Position numbers and translations under genes: made by a program. From positions 213,428 through 277,427 of the forward strand of contig JBCCGL010000007.1 in NCBI GenBank assembly GCA_039029275.1: a stretch of 64,000 bases of DNA. Direction: 5' to 3'. Positions within the stretch are counted from its first letter, which is position 1. Each line of letters opens with the position of its first letter. The notes under the pieces were generated by a model. That model searched no databases. It was given only the letters and a program-made list of their open reading frames with translations, and had not been told where the DNA came from. Source of the DNA: Pseudomonadota bacterium. Its GTDB lineage: Bacteria > Pseudomonadota > Gammaproteobacteria > JBCCGL01. This document shows, in pieces, positions 3,797 through 22,280 of the stretch.

Positions 3797-3837
3797 ACGA
3801 TACTTATGATAATAATGAATTTGGAAAACACAGCTTT

Positions 3838-4845
3838 ATGAAAATTCTTGTAACAGGAACCGCCGGTTTCATTGGTGCTGCGCTGGCGATTCGATTACTC
3901 GAACGCGGTGATGACGTCATCGGTATAGACAACCTCAACGATTATTATGACGTTGCCATCAAACACGCGCGGCTTAAGCGCGTGAACGCGTTTGATCGAT
4001 TCACTGAAATCAATGCAAACCTTGAAGACCGAAACACAATCGAAAAAGTATTTGCGGAGCACAAACCTGAGCGGGTGATCAATCTGGCAGCGCAGGCGGG
4101 TGTGCGATATTCCCTGACTAATCCCTACGCGTATATCGATTCAAACATTTTGGGCTTTATGAATCTGCTCGAGTGCTGCCGCCACAATGAAGTTGAGCAT
4201 CTGGTTTACGCATCGAGTAGCTCGGTTTACGGCGCTAACACTTCCATGCCGTTTTCAGTTCACAATAATGTTGATCACCCGGTCAGCCTTTACGCCGCCA
4301 GTAAGAAATCCAACGAGTTGATGGCGCACACGTATAGTCATTTGTTCAACATTCCGACAACCGGCTTGCGTTTTTTTACCGTGTACGGCCCCTGGGGGCG
4401 TCCGGACATGGCTTTGTTCAAATTTACCAAGAACATTCTTGAGGACAAGCCTATCGATGTTTTCAACTATGGAAACCATCGGCGCGATTTTACCTACATC
4501 GATGACATCGTCGAAGGCGTCATTCGCACGCTTGATAGCGTTGCGAAACCCAATCCGGACTGGAATGGCGACTCGCCCGACGCCGCCACCAGCAAGGCAC
4601 CCTACCGACTCTATAACATCGGAAATAACTCACCGATTGAACTCATGCACTACATTGAAGTTCTGGAAAATTGCCTTGGCAAAAAAGCGGAAAAGAACCT
4701 TCTGCCCATGCAGGCCGGTGATGTACCTGATACCTACGCAAACGTAGAAGATCTGGTTGTCGATGTCGGCTACCGGCCGACAACCACAGTAGAAACCGGG
4801 ATCGCTCATTTCGTCGAGTGGTATCGTGACTTCTACAACTGTTAG
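3838..4845 (+). CDS. NAD-dependent nucleotide-sugar 4-epimerase (WbpP/TviC-like, UDP-GlcNAcA/UDP-GlcA 4-epimerase family)
   Basis: [13 protein letters not shown] Rossmann, [14 protein letters not shown] catalytic motif. Start placed at ATG 3838 rather than the overlong ORF start at 3736. Confidence 0.8.
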
Positions 4846-4854: not shown

Positions 4855-5310
4855 ATGTTGGAAGATGTATGGCGCCCCAACACAACGGTCGCGGCTGTAA
4901 TTGAGCGAGAGGGCCGTTTCCTTATGGTTGAGGAGATAAGTAACGGTAATCGCGTTATCAACCAGCCCGCCGGTCATCTTGAAGACGATGAGACTTTTCT
5001 GGAGGCGGTGCAACGTGAAGTGTTGGAGGAAACCGGTCACCCGTTTCACGCTGAGAGCTTGCTTGGCTGTTACCGATGGCGAAACGCTAACAACGGTTTG
5101 ACGTTCTTGCGACTCGCCTATATTGGTTATGTGGCGGACCCACTTCCGGATGCATCGATCGATGCAGATATTCTCGACGTCAAATGGATGAGCTACGACG
5201 AGATTCAATCCTTCGGCAGACTCCGCAGCCCACTCGTATTAAAATGCCTGGATGACTACCTCGCCGGCACTCGATATCCGCTCACTTTTGTTCAAGAAGT
5301 CCTGGGTTAG
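4855..5310 (+). CDS. NUDIX hydrolase
   Basis: 151 aa. Nudix box GHLEDDETFLEAVQREVLEETG. Confidence 0.75.
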   Translation: MLEDVWRPNTTVAAVIEREGRFLMVEEISNGNRVINQPAGHLEDDETFLEAVQREVLEETGHPFHAESLLGCYRWRNANNGLTFLRLAYIGYVADPLPDASIDADILDVKWMSYDEIQSFGRLRSPLVLKCLDDYLAGTRYPLTFVQEVLG

Positions 5311-5869
5311 GCTAGCGGCAAGCGCGTTTTCGCTTGCGATCGCGAGTTCGGTATCTGCAACCGAAAATCTATCAATCTGTACTAATTTCTCGTGCAAGGA
5401 GAAAGTGCTGGTTGAACTCGATCAATCACATTGGCAGAGGGTCCAGCGCCACTTTCTGCCCGCGCCGAAATCCCCGCTCAACGAACGCAATGCGATCGCG
5501 GCTGCAATCGCCGAGTTCGAGACAATTGCAGGCGAGATGAGTGTCATTGCGCTGGACAAGGGAGGCAATATCGACGGCATCGGACTGCCCGGGCAACTTG
5601 ACTGTATAGCAGAGTCAATCAATACGACTACGTTTTTGAACGCATTAGACGACAACGACCTGTTGAAGTGGCATACGGTTGGCGAGCATTCTTATCGGCG
5701 GCCAAGAATTTTCGACCAGCACTATGCGGCAACAATCACAATAATATCCGGTGCGCAATCGTGGGCCGTTGACAGCTGGCATCTGGACAACGGATTACAG
5801 CCCTATATTCAGCCGGTTGCCGACTGGTCGAGAAAAGTCACCCTCCCCTATAATCCGGATGCGGAATAG
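5252..5869 (+). CDS. Hypothetical secreted protein (Sec signal peptide KKSWVRLAASAFSLAIASSVSA|TE). Start uncertain: TTG at 5288 is plausible, and the ORF as called overlaps the NUDIX gene by 59 nt
   Basis: ORF with textbook n/h/c signal peptide. No recognisable domain. Confidence 0.45.
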   Translation: MTTSPALDIRSLLFKKSWVRLAASAFSLAIASSVSATENLSICTNFSCKEKVLVELDQSHWQRVQRHFLPAPKSPLNERNAIAAAIAEFETIAGEMSVIALDKGGNIDGIGLPGQLDCIAESINTTTFLNALDDNDLLKWHTVGEHSYRRPRIFDQHYAATITIISGAQSWAVDSWHLDNGLQPYIQPVADWSRKVTLPYNPDAE

Positions 5870-5896: not shown

Positions 5897-6985
5897 ATGT
5901 CTCTTGATCATACCCCCTCTGACACGCGCGTCATCGTCGGAATGTCTGGCGGCGTTGACTCGTCCGTCGCCGCGCTCCTGTTGCTCGAGCAAGGGTATCG
6001 GGTCGAAGGCATATTCATGCAAAACTGGGAAGAAGAAGATGAGGACTATTGCACCGCAATACAAGATTACAAAGACGCGCAGGGCGTGTGCCAGAAACTC
6101 GGAATCGAATTAAGCAGCGTTAATTTTTCAACCGAATATTGGGATCGGGTATTCAGTCACTTCCTCGCAGAGTATCAGGGGGGGCGCACACCCAACCCCG
6201 ACATTGTTTGCAATAAGGAAATTAAATTCCGCGCTTTTTTGGATCACGCCACTGCAGTCGGTGCCGACTACATTGCCACCGGTCATTACACGCGCCGACG
6301 CGACGCTGACACGACGCAACTTTTACGCGGCCTGGATCAGAACAAGGACCAGAGTTATTTTCTGTGCGCGCTGAATCAGGATCAGCTTAGCCGCGCGCTA
6401 TTCCCCGTTGGAGAGTTGACTAAAACCGAGGTGCGTGACATTGCGCGAGAAAATGGATTTCACAACCATGCGAAAAAGGACAGCACCGGAATTTGTTTTA
6501 TCGGAGAACGAAAATTCAGTGATTTTTTGTCGAACTATTTACCCGCGCAGGTAGGAGAAATCGTGACCGACTCAGGCGAGGTGATCGGCGAACATCAAGG
6601 ATTGATGTACTACACCCTGGGGCAAAGGCAGGGTATTGGAATTGGCGGACGAAAAGACGCCAGCACAAAACCATGGTACGTCGCCGGGAAATTACTGGAT
6701 CAAAAACAGCTGTTGGTTGTGCAAGGCCATGACCACCCGCTCTTGTTTAAGGATAAACTCTTTGCTGAAAACATAAGTTGGTGCAGCGGGTTCGCCCCGG
6801 GTGAACAATTTCTTTGTTCTGCAAAAGTTCGCTATCGACAAACCGATGAAACGTGCGAAGTCATCTTGCAAAGCGAGGCGACTGCGACGGTTCAGTTTGA
6901 CCGTCCAATAAGAGCGGTCACTCCAGGACAATCCGTAGTGTTTTATCACGATGAAGTTTGCCTTGGTGGTGGAATCATCCAATGA
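5897..6985 (+). CDS. mnmA: tRNA-specific 2-thiouridylase MnmA
   Basis: [12 protein letters not shown]-loop, 362 aa, conserved mnmA-hflD pairing. Confidence 0.95.
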
Positions 6986-7638
6986 CGCTGAACAACTACA
7001 GCCCGGTGCACGAACAGTGCATTGCGCTGGCGGCAACATTTCAGGCCGCACATCTTGTTAATCAGATCGCGCATTCTGGCTGGCAATTCTCAGCATCGCA
7101 TCAAGTCTTGATCGACTCCTTGTTTAAATTTGATGTCGATACCGCTATCGATATTTACGAAAACGTCACGAATCTAGAATGCGGTTTGAACGTCTTACGA
7201 GCACAGTTGGGCGGTACAGGTGACGCGCGCGATCCCATGGTTGCGCGCTATGTAGCGCAGCTGTTGGCACTGCAATCTAAAGTCCGTAAAGACCGGAATA
7301 TCCTCGGTTCATTGAAAGACAAACTTGAGTCCGTTGATCGCGATCGAAGTGCGTACGAGTTAGCTGAATCGACGATACTGGCAAAGCTCGCAGAAATTTA
7401 CTCTACGCATGTAAGCTCATTGCGACCAAGAGTGTTGATTCACGGTAACCAGCTGCATCTGGAGCCGGTCGAAAATGCAAATGCGGTGCGAGCTTTGCTG
7501 TTAGCGGGTGTGCGCGCCGCTGTGCTTTGGGCGCAGGTCAAAGGATCGCGTTGGAAAATATTGGCGGGACGCGGACGATACCTGAGTGCCGCGAATGAAC
7601 TTGTTGCTGCGGCTGCCCGTGCCGACCCAGACTGCTAA
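6981..7638 (+). CDS. hflD: High-frequency-lysogenisation protein HflD
   Basis: Immediately downstream of mnmA with ATGA stop/start overlap. About 219 aa, HflD-like sequence. Confidence 0.8.
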
Positions 7639-7650
7639 ACCGGAATCTGA

Positions 7651-9696
7651 TCAAGCAGTCAGGCTTAATTCTCGCAACTCGGCAATCTTGTCGCGTAGCG
7701 CAGCGGCTTGCTCAAACTCCAGATCCTGTGCGTGTTGGTACATTTCCTTTTCGAGTTTCTTGATGTCTTTTAAAAGCTGAGCAGGTGATTTCGCGGCATA
7801 TTCGGCTGATACATCAGCGACTTTTCGCTGCGCTGAACGCGCGGGTACACCGCTGCTGGCGGCAATGCCCTCCAAAATATCACCAACGGCTTTGGCTACG
7901 CTTTTGGGAGTGATCCCGTTGACTTGATTAAACTGCTCTTGCTTCTCGCGCCGTCGATTTGTTTCGTCCATTGCGCGTTGCATTGATCCAGTAACGTCGT
8001 CGGCGTACAAAATGGCTTTGCCGTTGAGATTCCGCGCCGCGCGCCCGATGGTTTGAATCAATGATCGCTCAGATCGCAGAAAACCTTCCTTGTCTGCATC
8101 CAGGATCGCGACGAGCGAGACTTCTGGCATATCCAGCCCCTCGCGCAAAAGGTTTATTCCAACCAGTACGTCAAACTCTCCCAAACGAAGATCGCGAATA
8201 ATTTCCACACGTTCGACCGTGTCGATGTCTGAATGAAGATAACGCACGCGCACGCCGTGCTCGGCCAGATAGTCGGTAAGGTCTTCGGCCATGCGCTTGG
8301 TCAGCGTAGTGATCAGCACGCGCTCGTTTTGCGCTGCGCGTAAATTGATTTCTGAGAGCACGTCATCGACTTGCGTTACAACCGGACGGACTTCAACCTG
8401 CGGATCAACCAGGCCGGTTGGTCGAACCACCTGCTCGACAACTTCCCCTGCGTGCGTTTCTTCGTAGGGGCCAGGGGTGGCCGAAACGAATATAGTCTGC
8501 GGGGAGAGTTGTTCAAATTCGTCAAACCGCAGCGGTCGATTGTCCAGGGCTGACGGCAATCTAAACCCGAACATCACCAGATTTTCCTTGCGCGAGCGGT
8601 CGCCTTTGTACATCGCGCCAAGCTGAGGAACCGTGACGTGGCTTTCGTCGATCACCAATATCGCGTCCTGCGGCAGGTAGTCGAACAAACAGGGAGGCGG
8701 TTCACCCGCATTACGACCGGAGAGATAGCGAGAGTAGTTTTCGATCCCCGAGCAGTAACCCAACTCAGCAATCATTTCAATGTCGTACTGAGTCCGCTCT
8801 CGCAGACGTTGCGCTTCGAGCAAACGATTGTCGTCGTAGAGCTGTTTTAAACGCTCATCCAGTTCCTCGCGGATGTGGTCTATCGCTTCCAAAAGGGTTT
8901 CACGAGGTGTAACGTAATGCGTTTTCGGGTACACAGTGAGTCTGGGTACCCTGCGCAATACTTCGCCCGTCAGCGGGTCAAAAAAGGACAGATTTTCGAC
9001 CTCGTCATCGAAAAGTTCTATTCGAACGGCTTCGTGATCCGAATCCGCTGGATGAATGTCGATGATCTCGCCGCGCACACGGTAGGTGCCGCGTGTCAAC
9101 TCGGTATCATTGCGCTTGTACTGCAATTCAGCCAGCCGACGCAGGATCTGACGCTGATCAATCTGATCCCCGCGGACTACGTGGAGCAACATTTTTAGAT
9201 ACGAGCGAGGGTCCCCTAACCCGTAAATCGACGAAACCGTCGCCACGATAATCGTATCGCGCCGCTCAAACAGCGACTTAGTGGCGGAAAGCCGCATTTG
9301 TTCGATGTGTTCGTTAACCGAAGCATCTTTTTCGATGTAGGTGTCGGAGGCTGCCACGTACGCTTCTGGCTGATAATAGTCGTAGTACGACACGAAATAC
9401 TCAACCGAGTTATTGGGGAAGAACGTTTTCATCTCCCCGTACAGCTGCGCAGCCAGTGTCTTGTTAGGGGCAAGAATGATCGCCGGTCGCTGCTGCCGCT
9501 CGATCACATGCGCAATCGTGAACGTTTTACCCGAGCCTGTGACACCCAGCAATGTCTGGTATGCCAACCCGGAATCGAGCCCATCGTTTAACTGGGTAAT
9601 CGCGGTCGGTTGATCACCAGCCGGCTTAAACTCGCTTGCGATGGCAAACGGTTTATGGCGTGTATCGTTGCCGGGATTGGGAGTTGCTGTAGACAA
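7651..9696 (-). CDS. uvrB: Excinuclease ABC subunit B
   Basis: 681 aa. [10 protein letters not shown] Walker A, helicase motifs, C-terminal UVR domain. Confidence 0.97.
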
Positions 9697-9851: not shown

Positions 9852-9927
9852 TCCCCGGTAGCTCAGTCGGTAGAGCGGGTGACTGTTAATCACTAGGTCG
9901 GCGGTTCGAGCCCGTCCCGGGGAGCCA
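9852..9927 (+). tRNA. tRNA-Asn (anticodon GTT)
   Basis: Cloverleaf folded by hand. Acceptor TCCCCGG/CCGGGGA, anticodon loop CTGTTAA, T-arm GGTTCGAGCCC, encoded CCA. Confidence 0.9.
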
Positions 9928-10101
9928 TATTTTGAGCCAGAACAGGTTAACCCAATACCTCAAATCTTTTGCTGGCAAATCCTAACGACGCTGCCGCCTG
10001 GGCTCCTCAACGTGTGAACGACTACTCGTACAGTTCGACATTAATCAGTACGAATGGCTGCCTGCGTGCTCAAAATTAGATGACTGATTTAGAGCGTTTA
10101 T

Positions 10102-11028
10102 TTATCTGTCTGATTGATGGAGAAGCTTTATTTCATCCACAAATGTTCTCACTAAGTTACTTTGCTTCTTAGTCTTGTTTGTAATAAGAACAATCTGATT
10201 ACTAAAAAAATAGCGATCTGGATCGACCGCTTTCATAAAGCCCTGAGTCACCCAGGTCTCGGCGAAATGTTCAGGTAAATAGCCAACAAATTGCCCAGAC
10301 AAAATTAAGTGAGTTACACCTTCATCGTGAACTGTTGTTGCGGTGGTTTTGCAAGGAGGTTTGGCTCCATGAAACTCTAAGTCGCGTGTGTATCCGTGTC
10401 CGACCAGCTCCGCACTCTCGAGCAGTTTCGGGATTTGACCACTGTCACATTCAAACAAAGGATTTTCTGAGCCGCAGTACAGGTAGATATCTTCGGTATA
10501 TAGAAGTTCATAATGCAACCCTCTGAGAGGATACCTCCGAATGCCAATACCCACGCTGTACTCTCCGTTAAGCACCGATAGTTCAACATTCTCGGGAGAG
10601 CGAACATGAATATTAATCTGAAAATTCCCATCTTTGGATTTAATTCTGGATATCGCTTCCGATAAGCGAAATCTACGATCACTGATTAACATATCGATGG
10701 TTGAAATAGATAAGGTACCCGAAAGTCCAGATTTGGCGTCGGCCACGCTGGCGACAAATGACTCACATTGTTGAAAAAGTGCAATCGACGCCTCATAGAT
10801 GATCCTTCCTTGCTCGGTGATTTGAAATCCCGCGCGCCCGCGCCTGCAAAGCTGCATATTGAGTCGGCCCTCCAGATCGGCTAAATGGCTACTGATAGTC
10901 GAGCGGCCGATATTCAATCTTGTCTCAGCGGCTGACAGCCCCCCGCACTCGACGATTGCCACAAACACCCTCAAGAGACGCAAATCGACGTCCTGAACCT
11001 GCATTTCGATGGCTACTCCAGTTTCCAC
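10102..11028 (-). CDS. LysR-family transcriptional regulator
   Basis: N-terminal HTH LRLLRVFVAIVECGGLSAAETRLNIGRSTIS plus substrate-binding domain. Divergent from the IDO-like gene. Confidence 0.9.
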   Translation of the reverse strand: METGVAIEMQVQDVDLRLLRVFVAIVECGGLSAAETRLNIGRSTISSHLADLEGRLNMQLCRRGRAGFQITEQGRIIYEASIALFQQCESFVASVADAKSGLSGTLSISTIDMLISDRRFRLSEAISRIKSKDGNFQINIHVRSPENVELSVLNGEYSVGIGIRRYPLRGLHYELLYTEDIYLYCGSENPLFECDSGQIPKLLESAELVGHGYTRDLEFHGAKPPCKTTATTVHDEGVTHLILSGQFVGYLPEHFAETWVTQGFMKAVDPDRYFFSNQIVLITNKTKKQSNLVRTFVDEIKLLHQSDR

Positions 11029-11160
11029 CTATTGTTTGATCAAATCGGAACAAAGTCCAACTAATTTGTATTTTTCGGCAAAAAATTGAAGCGTAAGATT
11101 CCCCATCTAGAGTTGGCCCTTACGTATTACCGCTGAAAATCAGCATTAAAAATTCAACCA

Positions 11161-12318
11161 ATGAGTGGTTCTTCCATGCAACAAAGCTGCTGGAATCCGG
11201 TAAATGACACCGGGTTTCTGATGAGCCCAGATCCTGTATTCGACTTATCAATTGTCGGATCAGGCCTGCCCCTGCTCGTCAGCACAACGCTTGAACATAT
11301 TGCCGATTCGCTGCCCGAGTTGATTAAGTCCGGAAATCTTCGCAACGTAATTGATGAGCTTGAAGCATATGACGTATCTGCGTTGCGCAATATCAGGGAC
11401 TTTCGGGTTGTTGAACGCGCTTTTCAGATATATGCGCATCTCGCTAACGCATACGTGTGGTGCGACGAAGAAAACCCCAAACACCATATTCCTGAGGGTG
11501 TTGCTGTTCCGTTAGTTGAGTTATCAAAAATGGTTGAGCGGCCGCCGATTTTGCCCTACGCCGCGACATCATTGTGTAATTTTCGGCGTAGAGATCCGCA
11601 CGATGATTTGGTCGCCGATAACCTCGAGTGCATCATTAAGTTCGTTGACATACCCGATGAATCCTGGTTCCACCTCATTCACGTGGAGATTGAAGCTCAT
11701 GCAGCCAACGCGTTGAAGGCTTGTGTCGAAGCCACGAGCGCGATCTCGAGCGATGACGCTCAAATGGTTAAGTCTGAACTCGCCACAATACCAGAAGCCT
11801 TCGGCAAGATGATGGCAACGTTCAAACGCATGGACGAACACTGCAGTCCTGAGGTCTATTTCCATACTTCGCGCCCCTACCGTTTTGGTTTTGATGACGT
11901 GGTCTACAGGGGTGTAGAGGACTTTAACGGACGACCACAAACATTTTGTGGTGAAACTGGTGAACAAAGTACGGTGGTTCCCGCCTTGAAGGCCTTTTTA
12001 GGCCTGCAGAATGAACAGCATGGACTAAGCGAACCCCTGGAAGTCGTGAAGCCTTACATGCCCTCTCCTCACCGACAACTTTTGGCAGGCATTGATAGCC
12101 AGAAAATTCGCAAGTACGTCGTGAACCAAAAAAGCCAATCACTAAAACAAATATACAACAATTGCCTTGAAGGCTTGTTCGAATTCAGAAGCCTCCATTT
12201 TAATATGCTTAAGGGACATGTGGCGTGCAAGGTAAAAAATCCAATCGGTCGGGGTGGCACGGATTTTATGCACTGGTTACAAAATCTCAGAAACGAAACG
12301 GCCGCGCAATACATATAG
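11161..12318 (+). CDS. Indoleamine 2,3-dioxygenase (IDO) family heme dioxygenase
   Basis: GETGEQSTV (cf. GGSAGQSS), KPYMPSPHRQLL (cf. RRYMPPAHRNFL), FRSLHFNML (proximal His), GRGGTDFMHWL (cf. GTGGTDLMNFL). Exact start uncertain. Confidence 0.7.
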   Translation: MSGSSMQQSCWNPVNDTGFLMSPDPVFDLSIVGSGLPLLVSTTLEHIADSLPELIKSGNLRNVIDELEAYDVSALRNIRDFRVVERAFQIYAHLANAYVWCDEENPKHHIPEGVAVPLVELSKMVERPPILPYAATSLCNFRRRDPHDDLVADNLECIIKFVDIPDESWFHLIHVEIEAHAANALKACVEATSAISSDDAQMVKSELATIPEAFGKMMATFKRMDEHCSPEVYFHTSRPYRFGFDDVVYRGVEDFNGRPQTFCGETGEQSTVVPALKAFLGLQNEQHGLSEPLEVVKPYMPSPHRQLLAGIDSQKIRKYVVNQKSQSLKQIYNNCLEGLFEFRSLHFNMLKGHVACKVKNPIGRGGTDFMHWLQNLRNETAAQYI

Positions 12319-12345
12319 TGCTATCGAATAACAAAAGGAATACCC

Positions 12346-13236
12346 ATGAAGCCTAGAATGATGGCGCACGGCGGCGCTTGGGATTGGGACGACGCTTTAG
12401 ACTTTGGGAAGCATCAGGGGTTAAAAATCGCGATACGGGCCGGCCAGAATATCCTCGACAACGGCGGCAGTGCACTTGACGCAGTTGAGAAAACCGTAAT
12501 TGCGTTAGAAGATAATCCTGTGTTCGATGCGGGGACCGGCGGACACCTCAACGAGGACGGAATCGTACAACTCGATGCACTTATTGTTGACGGCTCTAGA
12601 CATGATTTTGGTGCAGTTGCGGGTGTAACCAGTGTAAAAAACCCGGTAGCACTGGCTCGAAAAATACTGGAAGAGACGAATCAAGTATTCTTTGTCGGGC
12701 ACGGTGCAAATCAACAAGCCGGAAAACTTGGAATATCCCCTGTTGCGAATGAAACGCTCGTCACCCCTGAGATGCGCGAATACTTTTATGATCGTAGAAC
12801 CGATGGACCAAGCGATACTGTCGGTGCCATTGCCATCGACAAAGATGGCAATGTGGCCGCCGCAGCATCAACGAGTGGTTCCCCTTACAAGCCAGCCGGA
12901 CGAGTTGGAGACGCTCCATTTTACGGAGCAGGTGGTTACGCTGAGAATTATATTGGGGCAGCAGGAGCGACAGGCCATGGGGAAATGATTGCACGCACAC
13001 TCTTGTCCAAACACGCATGCGATCAAATCAGCAACGGCGCTTGTGCGATGCATGCGGCTCAGAAATCAATCGAGTATTTTGAGTTGTTGAATGGAAAGTC
13101 TATGTCTGCTCTGATCGTAATTGACAAAGACGGCAATCTCGGTGCGAGTCAAACCGCACCCAAGATGGCATTTGGTTGGGTTGATCTAAACGGCAATATT
13201 CACACAGCAATGACGTCGAGCGAACTCAGAAAATAA
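12346..13236 (+). CDS. Isoaspartyl peptidase / L-asparaginase family Ntn-hydrolase
   Basis: 296 aa. DTVGAIAIDKDGN nucleophile-Thr motif, GAGGYAENYIGAAGATGHGE. Good SD AAGGA before ATG. Confidence 0.8.
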   Translation: MKPRMMAHGGAWDWDDALDFGKHQGLKIAIRAGQNILDNGGSALDAVEKTVIALEDNPVFDAGTGGHLNEDGIVQLDALIVDGSRHDFGAVAGVTSVKNPVALARKILEETNQVFFVGHGANQQAGKLGISPVANETLVTPEMREYFYDRRTDGPSDTVGAIAIDKDGNVAAAASTSGSPYKPAGRVGDAPFYGAGGYAENYIGAAGATGHGEMIARTLLSKHACDQISNGACAMHAAQKSIEYFELLNGKSMSALIVIDKDGNLGASQTAPKMAFGWVDLNGNIHTAMTSSELRK

Positions 13237-13302
13237 AATCTGACAATATCGAAAAATCTTGAATCCAGAACCAACATTGATCGGAACTGTTTCAGGTAAT
13301 TC

Positions 13303-16300
13303 TTAAGCAGCCTGTTCCTCCCCTTGAACGTTTCTTAAATGTCGGAGTAAATGTTTAACAACTGCATAGTTTTCGTCGTACGCTCTTTTTTTGACATAAC
13401 CATATCCACGAACCTTCGCTGCGCTACTCGCCAGCTCGACTGCTACGTCGTAGTTATCGGGCCGAGTTTCTCTCAACAAAATTCCCAGAAGTATTTCATA
13501 CTCATCGATGATGAGTCTTTCCAACTTTCGATCCTCGCTGTAGCCAAAAATATCGAACTTTGTTCCGCGCAGAAATCTTAACCCGGCCAGAATCTTAAAA
13601 ACCGGAATCATCCATTGGCCAAACTCCCGTTTGGACGGTAAGCCGTCTGGATTATTGGAAGCCAGTATAGGCGGAGCCAAGTTGAATTTGACTTGGTAGT
13701 CTCCTTCAAACTTATCGGAGAGATCCGACCAAAATTCATCGCTCGAATAAAGTCGTGCGACTTCGTACTCATCTTTGTACGCAAGTACATGTACATAAGT
13801 CCTGGCAACTTCCTTTGATAGTGCAAAATCAGTTCGGCCCAAAGCTTCATCGATCGACTCGAACGCGCGCACTTGATTAATGTAACGTTCGGCCAATGCT
13901 GTGTTTTGATACTGCTTGAGATGACTGGCGTACTGATCGAGTAAACCCTCAAGCGAATCTTCGCTTTTCTGAGCTGGTGCAGGATTTAGCTCGATAGTCG
14001 ATGGGAGCGACGAGGGTGAGTGACTTGCTAACCTGCCCCAGTTAAATGCAGCGATGTTTTTCTCAATTGCTACGCCATTCAGCTCGATGGCAGCTGTCAA
14101 GGATTCTGATTTTATTGGCACGTATCCTGACTGATACGCATAGCCCAGCAAAAACAGGTTTGCGAACACAGAATCTCCGAAGAGCCGCGTCGCGATATCG
14201 GTCGCATCGATGAATGTGCAATTGTCTGATCTAGTTGCCTTTCGAATAATGTTTTGCATTCGCATGGCGGGAAATTCAAGATCAGGTGTTTGTGTGAACG
14301 AAGACGGCATCGAACGGTAACTGTTTATCACGGCGTTAGTGTTTTGAGGGTCGGTTTTTGCCAAGGTATCAAAGCTGGACGCGACGATAAGGTCACCACC
14401 GATCACGACATTGGCTTCGCCCGCCGGAATGCGCACGGTATGAATGTCATTTTGAGAAACCGCGATACGAATATGACTGACCACTGCGCCGTATTTTTGC
14501 GCTAATCCCGCCATGTCCAGAACTGATATTCCTCTCTCCTCAATATGCGAGGCCATGCCGATGATCGCACCGATTGTGACGATACCTGTTCCTCCTACGC
14601 CTGTGACGACAATGTTGTACGGCATGTCAAGTGACGGTTTTATGGGTTCGGGCAGTGACTTGAATTCCGGGCTTTCCGTCATGGCCTGCTTCACTTTCAG
14701 TTTGCCGCCAACAACACTGACAAAACTCGGACAAAATCCTTTGTTGCACATAAAATCCTTATTACACGCGGACTGATCAATCGCGCGTTTGCGCCCAAAG
14801 GGTGTTTCAACCGGAATGATTGAAAGGCAATTTGATTTTTCTCCGCAATCACCGCATCCTTCACACACAGCCTTGTTGATAAACAAGCGTTTTTTCGGTT
14901 CTGGCATGAGGCCGCGTTTACGGCGTCGGCGCTTTTCTGTCGCGCAGGTTTGATCGTAGATGATGACCGAAACACCAGTGCTTTTACGCAGCGTGCGTTG
15001 CAAGGCATCAAGCTCGTCGCGATGATGCACCGTGACACCAGCGGCAAAATTTGCCTGGTGCGTGTACTTTTCAGGTTCGTCGCTGACCACCTTTAGCATG
15101 CGAACACCCTCGCCATATAGCTGATGAGTGATTTGCTCGACACTCAGTTGTCCGTCGATAGGCTGTCCGCCTGTCATTGCGACCGCGTCGTTGTAGAGCA
15201 ACTTGTAAGTCACATTCACGTCTGCAGCGACTGCTGCGCGAATCGCAAGCAAGCCGGAATGAAAGTACGTGCCATCTCCCAGATTCACAAATACATGTTC
15301 AGTTTCAGTAAAAGGAGATTGACCAATCCAGGCAACGCCCTCGCCGCCCATTTGTGAAAACGTTTCGGTTCGGCGATCCATCCAGATCGCCATATAGTGG
15401 CAGCCAATTCCGGCTAGTGCGCGGCTGCCTTCAGGCACTTTGGTGGATGTGTTATGCGGGCAACCCGAACAAAAATGAGGGACCCGCGCAATGGGTGACA
15501 CCGCCTGTTCCAACGCTTTTTCTTTCTCTTCAAGAAATGACAGACGTTCCTTCACCGCGTCACTGTCATAAAAAGGTTTTATTCGGCGAGCGATAACCCG
15601 TGCGACTTGTGCAGGCGTTAATTCACCGGTTGAAGGCAAAATCCATTCACCTGCCTCGTCAAATTTACCGACCACACGCGGCCTGACTTCCTCACGCCAG
15701 TTGTAGAGCTGTTCCTTAAGCTGGTTTTCGATAACTGCGCGCTTTTCTTCAACCACAATAATTTCTTCAAGACCTTCGGCGAACTCGCGAATTCCCTCTC
15801 GCTCAAGCGGCCAACTCATCCCTACTTTTAAAACCCGCAAGCCGATTTGTTGTGCGGTTTGTTTGTCGATGTGCAAATCGTCAAGTGCCTGCATCACGTC
15901 GAGATAGGACTTGCCGGTACTGACAATGCCAACGCGTGGCTTTTCGCTGTCGAGCGTAATGCGATTAAGCGTGTTGGCGCGCGCAAATGCCAATGCGGCG
16001 TACACCTTGTATTGCTGCAGGCGACGCTCCTGCACCAGCGGGGGATCGGGCCAACGTGCGTGCAAGCCGCCCGCGGGCATGTCGAAGTCCTGAGGCATGA
16101 CGATTGAGACCCGACTGGGGTCCAGGTCGGCAGAAATTGACGAATCGACAGTTTCGGCAATCGTTTTGAATCCAACCCAGCAACCGCTGAACCGCGACAA
16201 GGCCCAACCGATGAGTCCGAAATCCAGTATTTCCTGAACGCCAGATGGGTTAAGTACAGGCATTTGTGCGTCCATAAACGCGTATTCGCTTTGATGCGCC

Positions 16301-16761
16301 AGCGTTGAGGATTTGCAGGTATGGTCGTCCCCGGCAATTGCCAGGACACCTCCGAATTGGGATGTTCCTGCAGAATTGGCGTGTTTAAACACGTCGCCAC
16401 TGCGATCTACCCCGGGCCCTTTGCCGTACCACATTCCGAAAACACCGTCGTAATTAGCGCCATCGAACAGGTTAACTTGCTGCGAGCCCCATACTGCAGT
16501 TGCACCGAGGTCTTCGTTAACGCCGGGCTGAAAGTGTATATGGTGTTCTTTGAGGTAATCGCGCGCTTTCCACAGCGCCATGTCAAAACCGCCCAACGGC
16601 GATCCGCGATAACCTGATATAAACGCTGCGGTGTTCAATCCTGCCGCTAAATCGCGCTGGCGCTGCAGCATGGGGAGTTTGACCAACGCCTGGGTGCCGG
16701 TCAGATAGGCTCGGCCGGTATTAAGCGTGTATTTATCGTCGAGGGCTACTGATCGATTCAT
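13303..16761 (-). CDS. Indolepyruvate:ferredoxin oxidoreductase family protein (fused alpha/beta, 1152 aa)
   Basis: Characteristic N-terminus MNRSVALDDKYTLNTGRAYLTGTQALVKLPMLQR. TPP and 4Fe-4S Cys-motif regions (CEGCGDCGEKSNC). Confidence 0.9.
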   Translation of the reverse strand: MNRSVALDDKYTLNTGRAYLTGTQALVKLPMLQRQRDLAAGLNTAAFISGYRGSPLGGFDMALWKARDYLKEHHIHFQPGVNEDLGATAVWGSQQVNLFDGANYDGVFGMWYGKGPGVDRSGDVFKHANSAGTSQFGGVLAIAGDDHTCKSSTLAHQSEYAFMDAQMPVLNPSGVQEILDFGLIGWALSRFSGCWVGFKTIAETVDSSISADLDPSRVSIVMPQDFDMPAGGLHARWPDPPLVQERRLQQYKVYAALAFARANTLNRITLDSEKPRVGIVSTGKSYLDVMQALDDLHIDKQTAQQIGLRVLKVGMSWPLEREGIREFAEGLEEIIVVEEKRAVIENQLKEQLYNWREEVRPRVVGKFDEAGEWILPSTGELTPAQVARVIARRIKPFYDSDAVKERLSFLEEKEKALEQAVSPIARVPHFCSGCPHNTSTKVPEGSRALAGIGCHYMAIWMDRRTETFSQMGGEGVAWIGQSPFTETEHVFVNLGDGTYFHSGLLAIRAAVAADVNVTYKLLYNDAVAMTGGQPIDGQLSVEQITHQLYGEGVRMLKVVSDEPEKYTHQANFAAGVTVHHRDELDALQRTLRKSTGVSVIIYDQTCATEKRRRRKRGLMPEPKKRLFINKAVCEGCGDCGEKSNCLSIIPVETPFGRKRAIDQSACNKDFMCNKGFCPSFVSVVGGKLKVKQAMTESPEFKSLPEPIKPSLDMPYNIVVTGVGGTGIVTIGAIIGMASHIEERGISVLDMAGLAQKYGAVVSHIRIAVSQNDIHTVRIPAGEANVVIGGDLIVASSFDTLAKTDPQNTNAVINSYRSMPSSFTQTPDLEFPAMRMQNIIRKATRSDNCTFIDATDIATRLFGDSVFANLFLLGYAYQSGYVPIKSESLTAAIELNGVAIEKNIAAFNWGRLASHSPSSLPSTIELNPAPAQKSEDSLEGLLDQYASHLKQYQNTALAERYINQVRAFESIDEALGRTDFALSKEVARTYVHVLAYKDEYEVARLYSSDEFWSDLSDKFEGDYQVKFNLAPPILASNNPDGLPSKREFGQWMIPVFKILAGLRFLRGTKFDIFGYSEDRKLERLIIDEYEILLGILLRETRPDNYDVAVELASSAAKVRGYGYVKKRAYDENYAVVKHLLRHLRNVQGEEQAA

Positions 16762-17001
16762 GACAGGCCCCTAATTTCTTTATTTTCAGCAAGATAGATC
16801 AGAAAATAAAAGTAATTTGAGAACACAAGGCGGAGTCCGCCGTAAGCGCGAAAATCAAACATTTTTGTCACCTTCCTCAGGATCACTGCAGTATAGGTAG
16901 CTTCTGTGCCCTTTTGGGGCAGCCCAATAGTCGCATCATTCGGGGGAGAGACTCAAGTCTGATACCCTTGTTTTCATTATAGCCTGCACCGGAAAAAGCT
17001 A

Positions 17002-17751
17002 TTGAGGATCGTGAGTTGGAACATTCGAGCCGGTGGCGGCAAAAGGATCGGGTGCATTCTTGACAACTTGATACGGTGGCAACCCGATGTAATCTGCCTT
17101 AATGAATTCCGTGGCACGCCGCCCAGTTTGGACTTGGCCTGCGCGCTCGTCAGCTGCGGGTTTCCTTTTCAACGTAACACGGTAAACGCATCAGATAAGG
17201 CCAAAAACGCGTTGTTGATTGCCAGTGCGATTCCGATTAAACGAACGTGGCGCAAAGGCATGCCAGATAACGCCGAACGATGGTTATCAATTCGGCTTAA
17301 CCGAGTGCTCCCGATTTTCCTGGGTATCATGCACATCCCGAATTACACGCACCCACATTTGAAGTATCCGTTCATGCAGGCGGTGCTGGAGTTACAAAAA
17401 CGCTGGCGTTCCAGCCCGGCAATTTTTCTTGGTGATACCAACTGTGGCAAACGTGGAATTGACGAAGAACAATATTCCTCAGTTTTGTTTCGTCGGGAAC
17501 ACGACTGGATGGAGAACATCGAATCGAATCGTTGGGTAGATATTTATCGGCATTTTCACGGTAGTCGTCGTGAATTCACGTGGTACTCCCATCGCAACAA
17601 TGGTTTTCGATTGGATCACGCGTTCTGCAATCAAAAAATGTTACCGGCCGTTTGTTCCATACGCTATGAGTGGGGGCATGACCCCACGCAAGCAAAAAGG
17701 CGCGACGCGGTAAGCGACCACGCCGCGATGATTATCGACCTCGATAGCTGA
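17002..17751 (+). CDS. Endonuclease/exonuclease/phosphatase (EEP, ExoIII/DNase I-like) family protein. TTG start
   Basis: RIVSWNIRAGG, LNEFRG, C-terminal SDHAAMIIDL. Confidence 0.75.
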   Translation: MRIVSWNIRAGGGKRIGCILDNLIRWQPDVICLNEFRGTPPSLDLACALVSCGFPFQRNTVNASDKAKNALLIASAIPIKRTWRKGMPDNAERWLSIRLNRVLPIFLGIMHIPNYTHPHLKYPFMQAVLELQKRWRSSPAIFLGDTNCGKRGIDEEQYSSVLFRREHDWMENIESNRWVDIYRHFHGSRREFTWYSHRNNGFRLDHAFCNQKMLPAVCSIRYEWGHDPTQAKRRDAVSDHAAMIIDLDS

Positions 17752-17776
17752 TATCGATTTCCAGAGAGAAAAACTT

Positions 17777-19048
17777 TTATTTTTCAGCGTTAACCACGTC
17801 GTGAATCAAGCTTTCACTCTGGCGAAGGCGAGTATTCATTTTCTTGAGAAGTGACCAAAACAACTTCATTCCGAGGTCCGGATACCGCCTCAACAACGCG
17901 AATAGTTCCGGCCGCTTCAAAACAAGCATTACTGCGTTACTTGTGGTTGTCACGGTGGCCGATCGGGGAGCCTTATCGATCAGTCCCATTTCACCGAAGT
18001 GCCCTCCCGCTTTTAAATTAGCGACCAGTTTTCCGTTTACCGACACCTCGGCTTCACCGCCGAGAAGTACATACATATCATCGCCTTCCTCGCCTTCGCG
18101 CACCACGACTTCGTTGTTCGCGTATTTGGTAACACGGATAACTTGGAGTAGCAGAGAAATTTGATTGAAGTCGAGATTCTGAAACAAAGGGACACGCTTT
18201 AAAACATTGATCTTTTTAGTAGCGGTAACGTCCGGCGCAGGTGATGCGGTTTCATCTTCGCCGACCTGAACAACAACTGCTGTAATGTTGTCTTTACCGC
18301 CTCGCGCGTTGGCGAATTTAATCAGCTTTTCGGGTAAATCCGCAACATCAGTGCGTGTGCTAAAAGTATGCAAATCATCTTTGGAGGTATAGTCGCTTAA
18401 GCCGTCCGAACAAATAATGAAGCGATCATTGATTTCTGTATCCAGAAATCGGACCTCGGCTTCGACATACTCCTGTACACCCACAGCGCGGGTGATGACG
18501 TTAGCGTTTGGATGATTCTCGGCGTCTTCGCGTGACAAAACGCCCTTCTGCACCAATGTATTAACCAGCGAATGATCCTCGGTGACCTGATGAACTTCGT
18601 TTTTTCGGTGTAGATAAATTCGGCTGTCCCCAACGTGTGCGATAAACGCACCGTGCCTGCAAACCAGTACCAGCACAATGGTTGTGCCCATTCCGTGCCG
18701 GGTCTGATCCTCTTGTGCAAGCTGAAAGACTTTTCGATTGGCATATTCAATCGCGTCCTCAAGCAGAGCGGTGACCTGTTCCCTGTTCGCTTTCTGTGGC
18801 GTTTGATTAAACGTTGACAGACTGTCACTGGAAGCCTGAATACGTTCGACGACCGCTTTGGCCGTTGCTTCGGAGGCGACTTCACCCGCGGCATGACCGC
18901 CCATGCCGTCGCAAACAACGAACAGGCCGATGGTTTCATCGACTAGCAAAAAATCTTCGTTGTGATCGCGTTGAATGCCAACATCCGTTTTACCGGAATG
19001 CTTCACCGTGGGTGCAGACGCGACATTAATTTCAACAGTCTCTTGCAT
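17777..19048 (-). CDS. PP2C-family Ser/Thr phosphatase fused to a C-terminal cyclic-nucleotide-binding (CAP_ED) domain
   Basis: FVVCDGMGGHAAGEVAS metal-binding motif, DGLSD. C-terminal GEMGLIDKAPRSATV cNMP-binding signature. Confidence 0.8.
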   Translation of the reverse strand: MQETVEINVASAPTVKHSGKTDVGIQRDHNEDFLLVDETIGLFVVCDGMGGHAAGEVASEATAKAVVERIQASSDSLSTFNQTPQKANREQVTALLEDAIEYANRKVFQLAQEDQTRHGMGTTIVLVLVCRHGAFIAHVGDSRIYLHRKNEVHQVTEDHSLVNTLVQKGVLSREDAENHPNANVITRAVGVQEYVEAEVRFLDTEINDRFIICSDGLSDYTSKDDLHTFSTRTDVADLPEKLIKFANARGGKDNITAVVVQVGEDETASPAPDVTATKKINVLKRVPLFQNLDFNQISLLLQVIRVTKYANNEVVVREGEEGDDMYVLLGGEAEVSVNGKLVANLKAGGHFGEMGLIDKAPRSATVTTTSNAVMLVLKRPELFALLRRYPDLGMKLFWSLLKKMNTRLRQSESLIHDVVNAEK

Positions 19049-19099
19049 AAACTTGCCCTATGGGTCCGAAACATTGGATTCGGGAAGCAAAATACACTG

Positions 19100-19118
19100 A
19101 GATCAAGGAGCTTGATCT
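19100..19118 (-). promoter_or_regulatory. Perfect 8-bp inverted repeat AGATCAAG-gag-CTTGATCT in the 5' region of the PP2C-CAP_ED gene. Candidate operator
   Basis: Read directly, about 52-70 nt upstream of start codon 19048. Confidence 0.3.
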
Positions 19119-19389
19119 AACCTTCCGCCGTTAGCTAGCCCCTTTTCATTCTGTTTTTGATCATATCAGGGTCCTCCGCTTTCGAATACCGCAAAAATCT
19201 GTCTCCCGATTTGTTCGGCGGCCAAATCGCGACAATGAACTTGGTAATCGACATCCAATCAATCATTGTGGCTGAGATTTGCCTTTGTACCGTTGTCGCT
19301 ACGCGCTGTATCGATGTGCAGGGGTATGTCGGACACAGGCTCTCTGTGCGTAGTGAACTTCGATATAAGTTGTCGGAAACTTTCTGTTT

Positions 19390-20334
19390 TCACTTTGCGA
19401 TTGGCTTGTGATGGCGAGATGCGCGCCAATAAGAAGGAGCTTCGCCAAACTTCGCCTGGAAAGCCCGACTAAACGCTTCTTTTGAAGCATAACCAACACG
19501 ATCAGCAATCGATTCGATTGGCGTACTTGAATGCAAAAGAGCCTCAGCGGCTTGATCCAATCGCCATGCACGCAGGTAGGCACCCGGTTTTTGCCCCATA
19601 ACCTGTTTAAAGCGTTCTGCAAAATTGGAGACAGACATCCCTGCAATATTTGCGAGTTCCGCATTCGTCAGATTTTGTAACGGCTCAGCGTGAATAGCCG
19701 AAACGGCTCGGGCGATACGTTTATCTTTTGCGGCAGCCAGCCAGCCAGGAAGGCTGTCTTCGGATTGGGCCCACCGTCGAAGTATGATGACAAGCAGAAG
19801 ATCGAGGAGGCGCGAAACCATTAGACTTGCACCGGGTCGGGTTGCGCCCAACTCTCCGAGCACGAGTTCACAGACGGTATCAACCCACTCAATCGGATGG
19901 TCATCAAGTCCTGTGAGAACGATGATTTGAGGCAGCGATCGCAATATTCCGGCGGCGAGGTTGCCGTCGACTGAAAAACTCCCCCAGAAACAATTCAGTG
20001 ACGATTCAGGGCTTGCGTTGGGTGAATCAAAATCTGGATAACTGAATCTGGCTTGATGCTGAGTCCCCTGAAGCATCAGGGCAATTTGTTTTTGCTTAAG
20101 AATGACCGGAGATTCAGAATCAATCTGGATTTCAAGTACGCCTTGTTCGACAACATACACACAAGGCTTTCCATGGGGAACTGAATAATCAAGCGGCCCC
20201 TGCGAGGTAATCACACGTGCACTTTCACCGCGCACGTGCACGATATCAAGCACTTCTGAAAAGGCATCCGTTCCAAATATCGGTGTTTCCGCTAACACTT
20301 CCGGCGTCTTCGTCATCGGCAAGTGAGTTCTCAA
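19390..20334 (-). CDS. AraC-family transcriptional regulator (cupin + HTH)
   Basis: C-terminal AraC HTH signature. Confidence 0.85.
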   Translation of the reverse strand: MRTHLPMTKTPEVLAETPIFGTDAFSEVLDIVHVRGESARVITSQGPLDYSVPHGKPCVYVVEQGVLEIQIDSESPVILKQKQIALMLQGTQHQARFSYPDFDSPNASPESSLNCFWGSFSVDGNLAAGILRSLPQIIVLTGLDDHPIEWVDTVCELVLGELGATRPGASLMVSRLLDLLLVIILRRWAQSEDSLPGWLAAAKDKRIARAVSAIHAEPLQNLTNAELANIAGMSVSNFAERFKQVMGQKPGAYLRAWRLDQAAEALLHSSTPIESIADRVGYASKEAFSRAFQAKFGEAPSYWRASRHHKPIAK

Positions 20335-20380
20335 TTTTTAAAATTCGGACCATGCTAATCCAACTACGAGGTACTTCAAA

Positions 20381-21145
20381 ATGATTAATTTTCGTAATGC
20401 TTTTCGCGCGGCGATGGCTGCTGTCGCCATAATTATCTCAATGAACGCGACAGCTAAAGATGCATCGGTTGTGCTTGTTCATGGCGCATTTTCGGACGGA
20501 TCCGCGTGGCACAAAGTGATTCCGATATTGCAGCATGCTGGAATTTCAGTGAATGCTGCCCAGTTGCCAATGTCATCACTCAAGGAGGATGCTTCCGTTG
20601 TGCCGCGCCTGATCGAACTTCAGGAAGGACCCGTCATACTGGTCGGGCATTCCTACGGTGGAAATGTAATTACAGAATCTGGCGCCAACGACAACGTCAG
20701 AGCGTTGGTCTACGTTGCTGGATTCGCTCTGGATGCGGGACAAGCAATGAAGGATTTGCTGAAAGATAAACCACCAGCACCTTGGCAAGCGGAAGCTAAG
20801 GCAGATTCACAGGGGTATGTGCGGCTCACTGAGGCAGGCATAAAAACGTTTTTCGCTCCTGATTTATCCGCAGAGGAAACGGCCCTGGTTTCGGCAACGC
20901 AAGGTCCGATCCAACGTAAGATCAATTACGAAGCGCCTACGGTCGCGGCTTGGAACATGCACCCAACGTTCTATGTTTTAACTGAAAACGACCAAATAAT
21001 TCCGCCTGAATTACAGGGTTTCTTCGCAACGCGAATGGGCGCTCAAATCACACCAGTAGCGTCGAGTCACGTTGCGATGTTGTCGCAGCCGGAGGCCGTT
21101 GCACAAGTGATATTGAAAGCTGTTGAAGCAGCTTTGTCTCGTTAA
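20381..21145 (+). CDS. Secreted alpha/beta-hydrolase (esterase, SABP2/methylesterase-like)
   Basis: Signal peptide, VLVHGAFSDGSAW, GHSYGG nucleophile elbow. Confidence 0.8.
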   Translation: MINFRNAFRAAMAAVAIIISMNATAKDASVVLVHGAFSDGSAWHKVIPILQHAGISVNAAQLPMSSLKEDASVVPRLIELQEGPVILVGHSYGGNVITESGANDNVRALVYVAGFALDAGQAMKDLLKDKPPAPWQAEAKADSQGYVRLTEAGIKTFFAPDLSAEETALVSATQGPIQRKINYEAPTVAAWNMHPTFYVLTENDQIIPPELQGFFATRMGAQITPVASSHVAMLSQPEAVAQVILKAVEAALSR

Positions 21146-21207
21146 GTTATCTACGAAACCCGCCCAAAGTAAATAATTTTTTAACCATTGATTTCAGGAG
21201 TACTTTA

Positions 21208-21570
21208 ATGACTTTTTGGATTCTTGCAGCTCTCTGCCTGTATTTTGTTCAAACCCTTTTACCAGTAACGTTTAGGTATCGCGGCAGTCCAGCGTCGATG
21301 GGAACTCGCGATACCATGCCCGAGGCTACAGATCTGGTTCGACGGGCTGAGCGCGCACTCATCAACGTTGGGGAGGCGATGCTCGTGTTTCTACCACTCG
21401 CTCTTCTAACTCTCGACTCTGAACCGGCAGAGTTAGGTGCGAGCATCTTTTTCTTTGCGCGGGTCGCGCATGTGATTTTGTACCTCGCTGGAGTGTCGTA
21501 CGTTCGAACTGTGGTATGGGTAATTAGCCTCGCAGGCCTGGTCATGATGGCGACCCACGTTGCGGTGTAA
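21208..21570 (+). CDS. MAPEG-family membrane protein
   Basis: 120 aa, three to four predicted TM helices, MAPEG-like. Confidence 0.7.
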   Translation: MTFWILAALCLYFVQTLLPVTFRYRGSPASMGTRDTMPEATDLVRRAERALINVGEAMLVFLPLALLTLDSEPAELGASIFFFARVAHVILYLAGVSYVRTVVWVISLAGLVMMATHVAV

Positions 21571-22202
21571 ACCCTTACTTTTCAACCATTAGTGTGAATC
21601 CGTGCCGTCAATTGATCCCTACAAGGAGATGAATCAAAACAGTATTCACTAAGGACTAAACACGCAAGCTCTTAGCGCGTTGTAAATGGCATTAGTGTTA
21701 AAAACGTCAGATGGGTATAGTTGAAAGCGCGTGACCCGTGACGCATGAAACCTACTTATTTGCTATACGGAAACCATCAAATATTTACACGATTGAATGC
21801 GTGTGTTTAACCTAGACAGACGAAGTACATTGATCGGATTTGGAAAAAAAAGACCGGAGTGAAAGGAACTGACCTCGGATCATCTATGCCCATATGCGTG
21901 GTAAAACGAAAACATGCCACAGGAACGATCGGAGCAGATCGATTACCTGTGCTACAAAATTCTCATTTATACAAAATCAAACACCAACGCTTTGCTTGGC
22001 TAGTTTGGAAAATAGCAATTCACTATATTGCCAATGTAAAAATCTTTTTGCGAGCCTCGCGGATTTTGCGCGCTACTCAGGCAAGAATTTAAAAAGTGGG
22101 CAATAGTAGCGGCGATCGTTCCCGCAATAGTCCTTTGCGGGTTGTCACTAGATAACATTCTACTTGAATAAAGAATTTTAATTTATTGTTTTATTGAGGG
22201 AA

Positions 22203-22280
<78 letters not shown>

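Follow-up and report, generated by a model that had tools for sequence, protein, structure and literature searches.

The 64,000-nucleotide stretch of contig JBCCGL010000007.1 analyzed here (hereafter the window) carries a 12-kb region in which the 3' ends of two tRNA genes, tRNA-Asn(gtt) and tRNA-Pro(ggg), point toward each other (positions 9928-22202, hereafter the interval). A preliminary description of this DNA had seen in the two facing 3' ends the geometry of a hot spot for island insertion. Our comparison with other loci suggests that the interval is probably a mosaic flexible region located at old rearrangement breakpoints and not one integrated element. Three layers could be distinguished. 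The first would be a slot between tRNA-Asn and the gene of a fused indolepyruvate:ferredoxin oxidoreductase (IOR), refilled in each lineage and occupied here by a LysR-IDO-Ntn hydrolase cassette most likely of horizontal origin. The second would be the fused IOR itself, inherited vertically with tRNA-Asn and uvrB, and the third a set of independently regulated accessory units, formed by an EEP (exo/endonuclease/phosphatase) family gene, a PP2C-cNMP gene and an AraC/hydrolase/MAPEG group. The hot-spot reading therefore stands in part, since the content beside both tRNAs is variable and the 3.3-kb slot at tRNA-Asn is swappable. However, the 12 kb do not behave as a single inserted unit: the IOR gene in mid-interval is syntenic with tRNA-Asn-uvrB, no integrase, att repeat or remnant of either was found, and codon usage is normal.

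The two tRNA genes were detected by both ARAGORN and Rfam, tRNA-Asn(gtt) at 9852-9927 on the + strand and tRNA-Pro(ggg) at 22203-22279 on the - strand. Both genes encode their CCA ends and direct their 3' ends into the interval, which confirms the geometry first described. tRNA-Asn, divergent from uvrB (7651-9696, - strand), forms the left boundary and tRNA-Pro, the last gene of the thrS...ihfA-MerR block, the right one. We mapped the proteins and tRNAs of the window onto 160 loci anchored on uvrB (genome collection, among the matches listed) or on pheT (metagenomes). A recurrent arrangement was observed, in which tRNA-Asn diverges from uvrB, and uvrB is followed on its own strand by tRNA-Val(gac), thrS, infC, rpmI, rplT, pheS, pheT, ihfA, MerR and finally tRNA-Pro(ggg). 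At least 22 loci carry uvrB and thrS co-oriented and at most 8 kb apart, with tRNA-Asn divergent upstream and tRNA-Pro(ggg) at the far end; they belong to Lysobacter, Steroidobacteraceae, Halieaceae, Rickettsiella, Pseudohongiellaceae, several Pseudomonadales metagenome-assembled genomes (MAGs) and one MAG labelled Rhodoferax. Adjacencies were counted in loci with enough flank to judge, among the matches listed. tRNA-Asn was divergent from uvrB in 37 of 61 evaluable genomes, uvrB was followed by tRNA-Val in 18 of 68 loci and by thrS within 3.5 kb in 12 of 68 genome loci and 4 of 21 metagenome loci, and tRNA-Pro(ggg) followed pheT(-ihfA-MerR) in 27 of 54 evaluable loci. The block thus recurs widely, in scattered taxa of several gammaproteobacterial orders, without being universal, since by these counts it is found in a minority of loci (12-18 of 68). 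Within the block, tRNA-Asn and tRNA-Pro are the outer ends and point outward, and an inward-facing Asn/Pro(ggg) pair was found in 0 of 169 other loci. The facing 3' ends, previously taken as a signature of insertion, are better explained as the outer ends of a conserved block that was split and re-ordered.

Relatives of the window are few and distant. Its IDO, PheT and UvrB are identical to proteins of one MAG (locus tag AAF434); otherwise its own proteins, ihfA and IOR among them, were matched exactly only in fragmented contigs of a single run, SRR22824298. The nearest other PheT sequences have 64, 63, 58 and 57% identity, the others about 50%, and the nearest other UvrB sequences 85, 83 and 81%, the others about 77%. 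In the anchor searches, the best uvrB identity in the genome collection was 77% among the matches listed, uvrB being highly conserved, and all pheT matches in metagenome contigs were at or below 50%. The relatives on the pheT side (L169-L172) and those on the uvrB side (L173-L175) come from different samples. As seen in L169-L175, whose best members reach uvrB 85% and pheT 64%, the interval is not one unit: IOR is kept beside tRNA-Asn and the remainder differs.

The conserved gene orders that are broken in the window point to the way in which the facing tRNAs may have arisen. E. coli K-12 carries, all in one orientation, nudJ-mnmA-hflD-purB-(phoPQ)-roxA. The NUDIX-x-mnmA-hflD run of the window stops at 7638, and purB (29942-31321) follows only from 29942; between the two lie uvrB (leftward), tRNA-Asn (rightward), the interval and then, all leftward, tRNA-Pro through thrS to tRNA-Val(gac) (29749-29825, - strand). 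Two junctions are therefore new with respect to the conserved hflD-purB and uvrB-tRNA-Val adjacencies. At the first (7638-7651), hflD and uvrB converge with their stop codons; the second (29826-29941), between leftward tRNA-Val(gac) and rightward purB, is its reciprocal and is common to L169 and L170. One inversion swaps two conserved adjacencies for two reciprocal novel ones, and the same exchange is observed here, from hflD/purB and uvrB/tRNA-Val to hflD/uvrB and tRNA-Val/purB. By parsimony, the two new junctions may thus be the reciprocal pair left by one inversion: the hflD-purB and uvrB-tRNA-Val adjacencies would have been broken in the ancestor of the clade, and the ends rejoined. Repeats or elements that could have mediated the events were not identifiable.

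The nearest relatives carry these junctions, so the split of the two clusters is old and common to the clade. In L169 and L170 (pheT 63-64%), purB diverges from tRNA-Val, which is followed by thrS...MerR and tRNA-Pro; beyond purB, L169 has NUDIX, kdsB, lpxK and msbA as in the window, plus a RoxA-type gene beside purB. In L175 (uvrB 83%), uvrB is followed by acnB, phzF and a DEAD helicase and then, on the opposite strand, by hflD, mnmA, x and NUDIX. As side observations on this group of loci, mnmA in L175 (14553-15610) and acnB in L174 (12154-14749) are each present as two adjacent open reading frames (ORFs), which are probably frameshift errors of long-read metagenome assemblies and not pseudogenes. 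In L174 (uvrB 81%), tRNA-Asn (9884-9959) is on the same strand as uvrB, inverted with respect to the usual divergent pair, and eamA and fdhD lie upstream of it, with no IOR.

Unlike the outcome of a single inversion, the two new junctions of the window are only 22 kb apart and in permuted order, hence at least one further event is needed. Beyond tRNA-Pro, we observed fdhD and a formate-dehydrogenase cluster in L169 and L170, ribD ... rpsB-tsf in L171, and parA-cheW-GGDEF-ggt ... rpsB-tsf in L172. No tRNA-Asn was present within about 9 kb past tRNA-Pro in L169-L172, and no tRNA-Pro within about 9.7 kb beyond tRNA-Asn in L173. At tRNA-Pro, the homology to L169-L172 does not extend more than a few bases from the CCA end. 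The joining of the tRNA-Pro end to the genes of the tRNA-Asn side therefore appears specific to the lineage of the window, and this lineage-specific event would account for the facing 3' ends. It would have joined the thrS block, by its tRNA-Pro end, to genes already present beyond tRNA-Asn, most economically through an inversion with one breakpoint at the 3' end of tRNA-Pro, in what would now be an AT-rich spacer (21571-22202).

The left part of the interval shows what was already there. The fused IOR family protein (13303-16761, - strand; 1152 aa; NCBIfam NF009588, 1680 bits) has orthologues of 1150-1155 aa in L173 (67% identity) and L175 (71%), on the same strand and on the same side of tRNA-Asn-uvrB. 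Because it is syntenic in both loci, IOR adjoined tRNA-Asn-uvrB ancestrally and did not arrive as recent cargo. The DNA homology to L173 and L175 runs through uvrB and tRNA-Asn, breaks off 0-12 nt downstream of the CCA end and is found again within IOR. Between these points lies a variable slot of about 3.3 kb, from the tRNA-Asn 3' end to the IOR stop codon (9928-13302), whose anchors occur in the same order and orientation in all three genomes, the window, L173 and L175. The slot holds the LysR-IDO-Ntn cassette in the window; in L173, where IOR, the slot genes and tRNA-Asn-uvrB read IOR (rightward), GNAT, TacA and tRNA-Asn (leftward) and uvrB (rightward), it holds a TacA antitoxin with a GNAT-acetyltransferase toxin (8571-9339), a pair typical of small mobile modules; in L175, small ORFs and a Tll0287-like gene occupy it. 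The slot at the uvrB-linked tRNA-Asn is thus refilled per lineage and sharply bounded. On the other side of IOR, L173 carries cbtAB, cysG, dsrH and motY, with no EEP gene, and none of the 169 other loci has a counterpart of the EEP, PP2C-cNMP or AraC/hydrolase/MAPEG genes in the vicinity of either tRNA. Aligning the two junctions, as had been proposed, gave a mixed answer on an inserted element: homology ends at or near the CCA of both tRNAs and the content beyond differs, but the relatives are only distant and IOR is retained.

The cassette that fills the slot in the window is composed of a LysR regulator (10102-11028, - strand), an IDO-family oxygenase (11161-12318, + strand; 380 aa in the NCBI annotation) and an Asparaginase_2/Ntn hydrolase (12346-13236, + strand), all assigned by Pfam. 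The same three genes, in the same order and orientation, were found in L163 and L164, with identities of 63, 67 and 76%, and these two loci share nothing beyond the cassette with the window or with the loci of its relatives. In both, IS21 follows the cassette; in L163, the IS21 transposase (rve/Mu-transposase C) and its IstB helper (6248-8631) lie 0.9 kb downstream of it. Other IDO homologues (61-63%) stand without the LysR and Ntn partner genes, and the named homologues, at 52-57% identity, belong to Chloroflexota and Alphaproteobacteria. A plasmid origin of IDO was discarded, the plasmid matches being at or below 34% identity and mostly from haloarchaeal megaplasmids. These results point to a portable cassette that was acquired horizontally. 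Its acquisition would not be recent; since its codon usage is normal, it would be old enough for codon adjustment.

These same data bear on an alternative in which the interval, in its entirety, descends vertically as chromosome specific to the lineage and has received nothing horizontally; evolutionary distance, through loss and shuffling, would then explain the differences from relatives. The composition of the interval, which is like that of the rest of the window, and the synteny of IOR in relatives agree with it. So do the identities between the cassette and its L163 counterpart (63-76%), which are in the range of vertical genes (IOR 67-71%, pheT 63-64%); L163 could be a member of the clade with the cassette located elsewhere, and the nearest relatives are distant enough that a breakdown of synteny is expected. 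However, IDO is 52-57% identical to proteins of Chloroflexota and Alphaproteobacteria while pheT is about 50% identical to that of other Gammaproteobacteria, and this cross-phylum identity indicates that the IDO family moved between phyla. In addition, the IS21 element adjoins the cassette in L163, the slot of L173 holds a toxin-antitoxin pair of mobile type, and L163 has nothing else in common with the window or the relatives' loci. Purely vertical inheritance is thus quite unlikely.

The opposite alternative is that the interval, as a whole or in part (17002-22202 being the most plausible part), is a decayed tRNA-targeting island, with its integrase and attR lost and its composition ameliorated. 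In its favor, tRNA-Pro(ggg) hosts P4-integrase islands in P. aeruginosa (PMC8373256), the genes of 17002-21570 are missing from the relatives' loci, and homology to relatives ends at, or a few bases from, the CCA ends of the tRNAs. Among 23 distant loci, the gene beyond the MerR-linked tRNA-Pro(ggg) was Phage_integrase in 2, an rve transposase in 1 and an HsdM methylase (hsdM) in 1, Phage_integrase being the first gene there; the tRNA-Pro(ggg) site is therefore a plausible integration target. Beyond the uvrB-linked tRNA-Asn, the first sizeable ORF belonged to 56 Pfam families across 37 distant genomes, with no integrase among the families listed. The breaks at the tRNA ends do not discriminate between the two readings, since they are equally expected from rearrangement, the tRNA being under selection.

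The hallmarks of an integrated element were searched for in the window itself. In agreement with the first reading of the sequence, scans of the nine interval proteins against Pfam, NCBIfam and PHROGs detected no integrase, transposase or phage-structural domain. Likewise, no direct repeat of a tRNA 3' end was found: the last 45 nt of either tRNA gave 0 copies on either strand of the whole 64-kb window, with thresholds of 14 nt without mismatch, 16 nt with 1, 18 nt with 2 and 20 nt with 3 mismatches, which leaves no tRNA-derived repeat of at least 14 nt. A general search for repeats yielded nothing beyond short matches, for which chance is the most likely cause. Pooled over its genes, the interval had a Karlin codon-bias distance of 0.105 to the rest of the window; the twelve blocks used as controls, each of nine consecutive genes from outside the interval, gave 0.083-0.159. 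None of the interval genes exceeded the 91st percentile of codon-bias distance, so that every gene is in the normal range of the window, and IOR had the smallest distance of all. The GC content (GC) of the interval genes and that at third codon positions (GC3) were slightly below those of the housekeeping flanks. Codon usage, indistinguishable from that of the window, speaks against an island, and GC is only 2-4 points lower in parts of the interval. Of the two observations that would together have undercut an accessory block, a core-like composition was found, whereas gene content is not constant and differs in relatives. Overall, we consider the decayed island rather unlikely.

The most deviant block of the window lies elsewhere. 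A run of O-antigen/polysaccharide genes (40334-51848, - strand; GC 0.44-0.49) encodes a Wzy-type ligase, GT1 and GT2 glycosyltransferases, a PIG-L deacetylase, a nucleotidyl transferase, a C-methyltransferase, an aminotransferase, a dehydratase and an initiating sugar transferase. No other block of the window deviates as much in codon usage (distance B = 0.159 for 38951-49408, compared to 0.105 for the interval), and this run looks more foreign than the interval does.

As already described, a non-coding AT-rich stretch abuts the 3' end of tRNA-Pro (21571-22202); it measures 632 nt (630 bp in the preliminary description) with a GC of 0.403, the lowest among the intergenic regions of the window longer than 150 nt, a feature that would suit a decayed island. 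No similarity was detected by blastn or blastx between the spacer and any of the fetched loci, including those with an integrase at the same tRNA, nor by blastx between the intergenic regions and 4226 ORFs from these loci, and a decayed integrase was discarded on this basis. Rfam gave no match in the spacer, even at E = 1, and Pfam none in its longest ORFs; promoter- or terminator-like sites were not in excess and folding was unremarkable (z = -0.9 and -0.5). A structured RNA, riboswitch or small gene was therefore discarded as well. We infer that the spacer corresponds to the breakpoint of the lineage-specific rearrangement.

Several points weigh against the reading of the interval as a mosaic region at rearrangement breakpoints. 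The closest relatives, at uvrB 85% and pheT 64%, are beyond the strain or species level, and the loci L169-L172 and L173-L175 may or may not represent the same organisms. The separation of the two tRNAs in relatives was judged over about 9-10 kb of flank per side. The hflD-purB adjacency was verified in E. coli only, and only a minority of loci show uvrB-tRNA-Val-thrS, an adjacency whose ancestral status in the lineage of the window is presumed. The excision and reinsertion of a circle fits the data as well as two inversions, the order and number of the events being those favored by parsimony. Finally, LysR has a GC of 0.46 and the spacer of 0.40, and an old, ameliorated insertion is conceivable for 17002-22202.

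A last alternative places the replication terminus (dif region) in the interval, which would bring together convergent orientation, rearrangements and accessory genes. Up to about 7.6 kb the genes lie on the + strand, from 22 to 53 kb on the - strand, and cumulative GC skew peaks locally at 8-13 kb. By contrast, no dif-like site was found: the best match to the 28-nt consensus was 18/28, compared to 17-19 in shuffled sequence, and the sole strong XerD-arm-like match lies inside thrS. Furthermore, the skew reverses at about 52 kb, where gene orientation reverses; since the two change together, the skew follows the transcription strand and not replication. A terminus is thus extremely improbable here.

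Regarding its content, the interval holds nine accessory genes, and every gene call made for it at first reading was upheld by Pfam and NCBIfam. To the right of IOR, these are the EEP family gene (17002-17751, + strand; Pfam PF03372), a PP2C Ser/Thr phosphatase with a C-terminal cNMP-binding domain (17777-19048, - strand; Pfam, and NCBIfam Stp1/IreP with 250 bits), an AraC regulator (19390-20334, - strand) divergent from an alpha/beta hydrolase (20381-21145, + strand), and a MAPEG protein (21208-21570, + strand), the last three identified by Pfam. The alpha/beta hydrolase also matches PHROG 26434 ("esterase/lipase") over nearly its full length (E = 8e-64), and nothing else in its surroundings is phage-like. 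By strand changes and by the presence of their own regulators, the nine genes form at least five independent units, and no link joining them into one system was found. In the SRR22824298 assembly (Logan), the contig of the interval (L082, 12,333 bp) terminates at both tRNA genes and the pheT-ihfA contig (L081) stops just before tRNA-Pro; these contig ends suggest that both tRNA sequences are repeated in that genome or in the metagenome graph.

The flanks correspond to those described at the outset, NUDIX-mnmA-hflD and uvrB on the left and MerR-ihfA-pheTS-rplT-infC-thrS-tRNA-Val-purB on the right. The order of the left flank is UDP-glucose dehydrogenase, a sugar epimerase (3736-4845; Pfam; 77% homologues in L008 and L111), NUDIX, an uncharacterised gene, mnmA (5897-6985; Pfam) and hflD (DUF489; 6958-7638; Pfam), then uvrB on the opposite strand. 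The gene between NUDIX and mnmA is a 205-aa ORF (5252-5869) without a Pfam match; it has a 47%-identical counterpart at the equivalent position in L175 (15678-16178) and would thus be a conserved gene of the clade, without an assigned function.

Functions could be proposed from domain content alone. The LysR-controlled IDO may be a haem dioxygenase with tryptophan or an indole compound as its substrate, accompanied by a putative Ntn amidohydrolase, and IOR is predicted to be an aromatic 2-oxoacid:ferredoxin oxidoreductase producing acyl-CoA. The EEP gene would encode a nuclease or a phosphatase, PP2C-cNMP a cyclic-nucleotide-responsive protein phosphatase, and the last group an AraC-controlled esterase with a putative MAPEG-type membrane protein resembling glutathione transferases. 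Compared to a kynurenine-pathway operon (kynA/kynB/kynU), the oxygenase here is of the IDO family and not TDO, and its sole co-transcribed partner is predicted to be the Asparaginase_2 Ntn hydrolase; Pfam and NCBIfam detected no formamidase or kynureninase domain in the interval. A literature search on bacterial IDO turned up only papers on host IDO. We can imagine, with little confidence, that LysR-IDO-Ntn forms an autonomous catabolic cassette which, although it has no recombinase, can move into slots flanking tRNA 3' ends, and which would open the tryptophan or indole ring in a non-canonical way, the Asparaginase_2-type Ntn amidohydrolase taking the place of kynurenine formamidase.

The PP2C protein was also compared with defence systems. 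PADLOC relates its cNMP domain to the sensor domains of Pycsar TIR effectors (E = 4e-21) and its PP2C part to the candidate system PDC-M21C. The cNMP sensor domain is thus alike, but the adjacent pyrimidine cyclase gene that Pycsar requires is missing from the interval: no cyclase domain was found in the nine proteins, and no defence gene is adjacent. The resemblance is probably one of shared domains, and a defence-island reading, which had domain-level PADLOC matches and no cyclase nearby, was rejected.

Overall, these results call for caution, since two facing tRNA 3' ends that resemble an island hot spot are here a by-product of the splitting and re-ordering of a housekeeping block. The gains are modest: a block documented across several orders, a replaceable slot in a poorly sampled clade, and a portable cassette whose function is predicted. 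Nothing here overturns current understanding, the interval being a flexible region of an ordinary kind, from a gammaproteobacterial lineage that has been little sampled.

Among known systems, the closest in position is the PAGI-97A family of P. aeruginosa, for which tRNA-Pro(ggg) is a documented integration target; these islands span 21-103 kb, with a P4-type tyrosine integrase at the border, a 49-bp repeat of the tRNA 3' end and a GC below that of the chromosome (PMC8373256). As in this family, the interval is bounded by the 3' end of tRNA-Pro(ggg), with variable cargo beyond; it is the same tRNA, a single gene located after pheT-ihfA-MerR in many Gammaproteobacteria. In contrast, it has no integrase, no repeat of the tRNA 3' end and no distinctive codon usage, and as all three defining features are absent, it is not a member of the family. 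The high-pathogenicity island of Yersinia and E. coli is associated with Asn-tRNA and has a P4-like integrase and a 17-nt att repeat. The interval resembles it in that the 3' end of tRNA-Asn bounds variable content, and differs from it in that no integrase is present in the interval and no att repeat in the window. Regions of genomic plasticity, or genomic islets, are small integrase-less variable segments between conserved anchors, often at tRNA genes. While genomic islets are strain-level polymorphisms, the variation of the slot (9928-13302) was seen across three very divergent genomes, at the genus or family level. As in genomic islets, however, this slot lies between conserved anchors, holds a different small cargo in each genome and is delimited by sharp breaks of homology.

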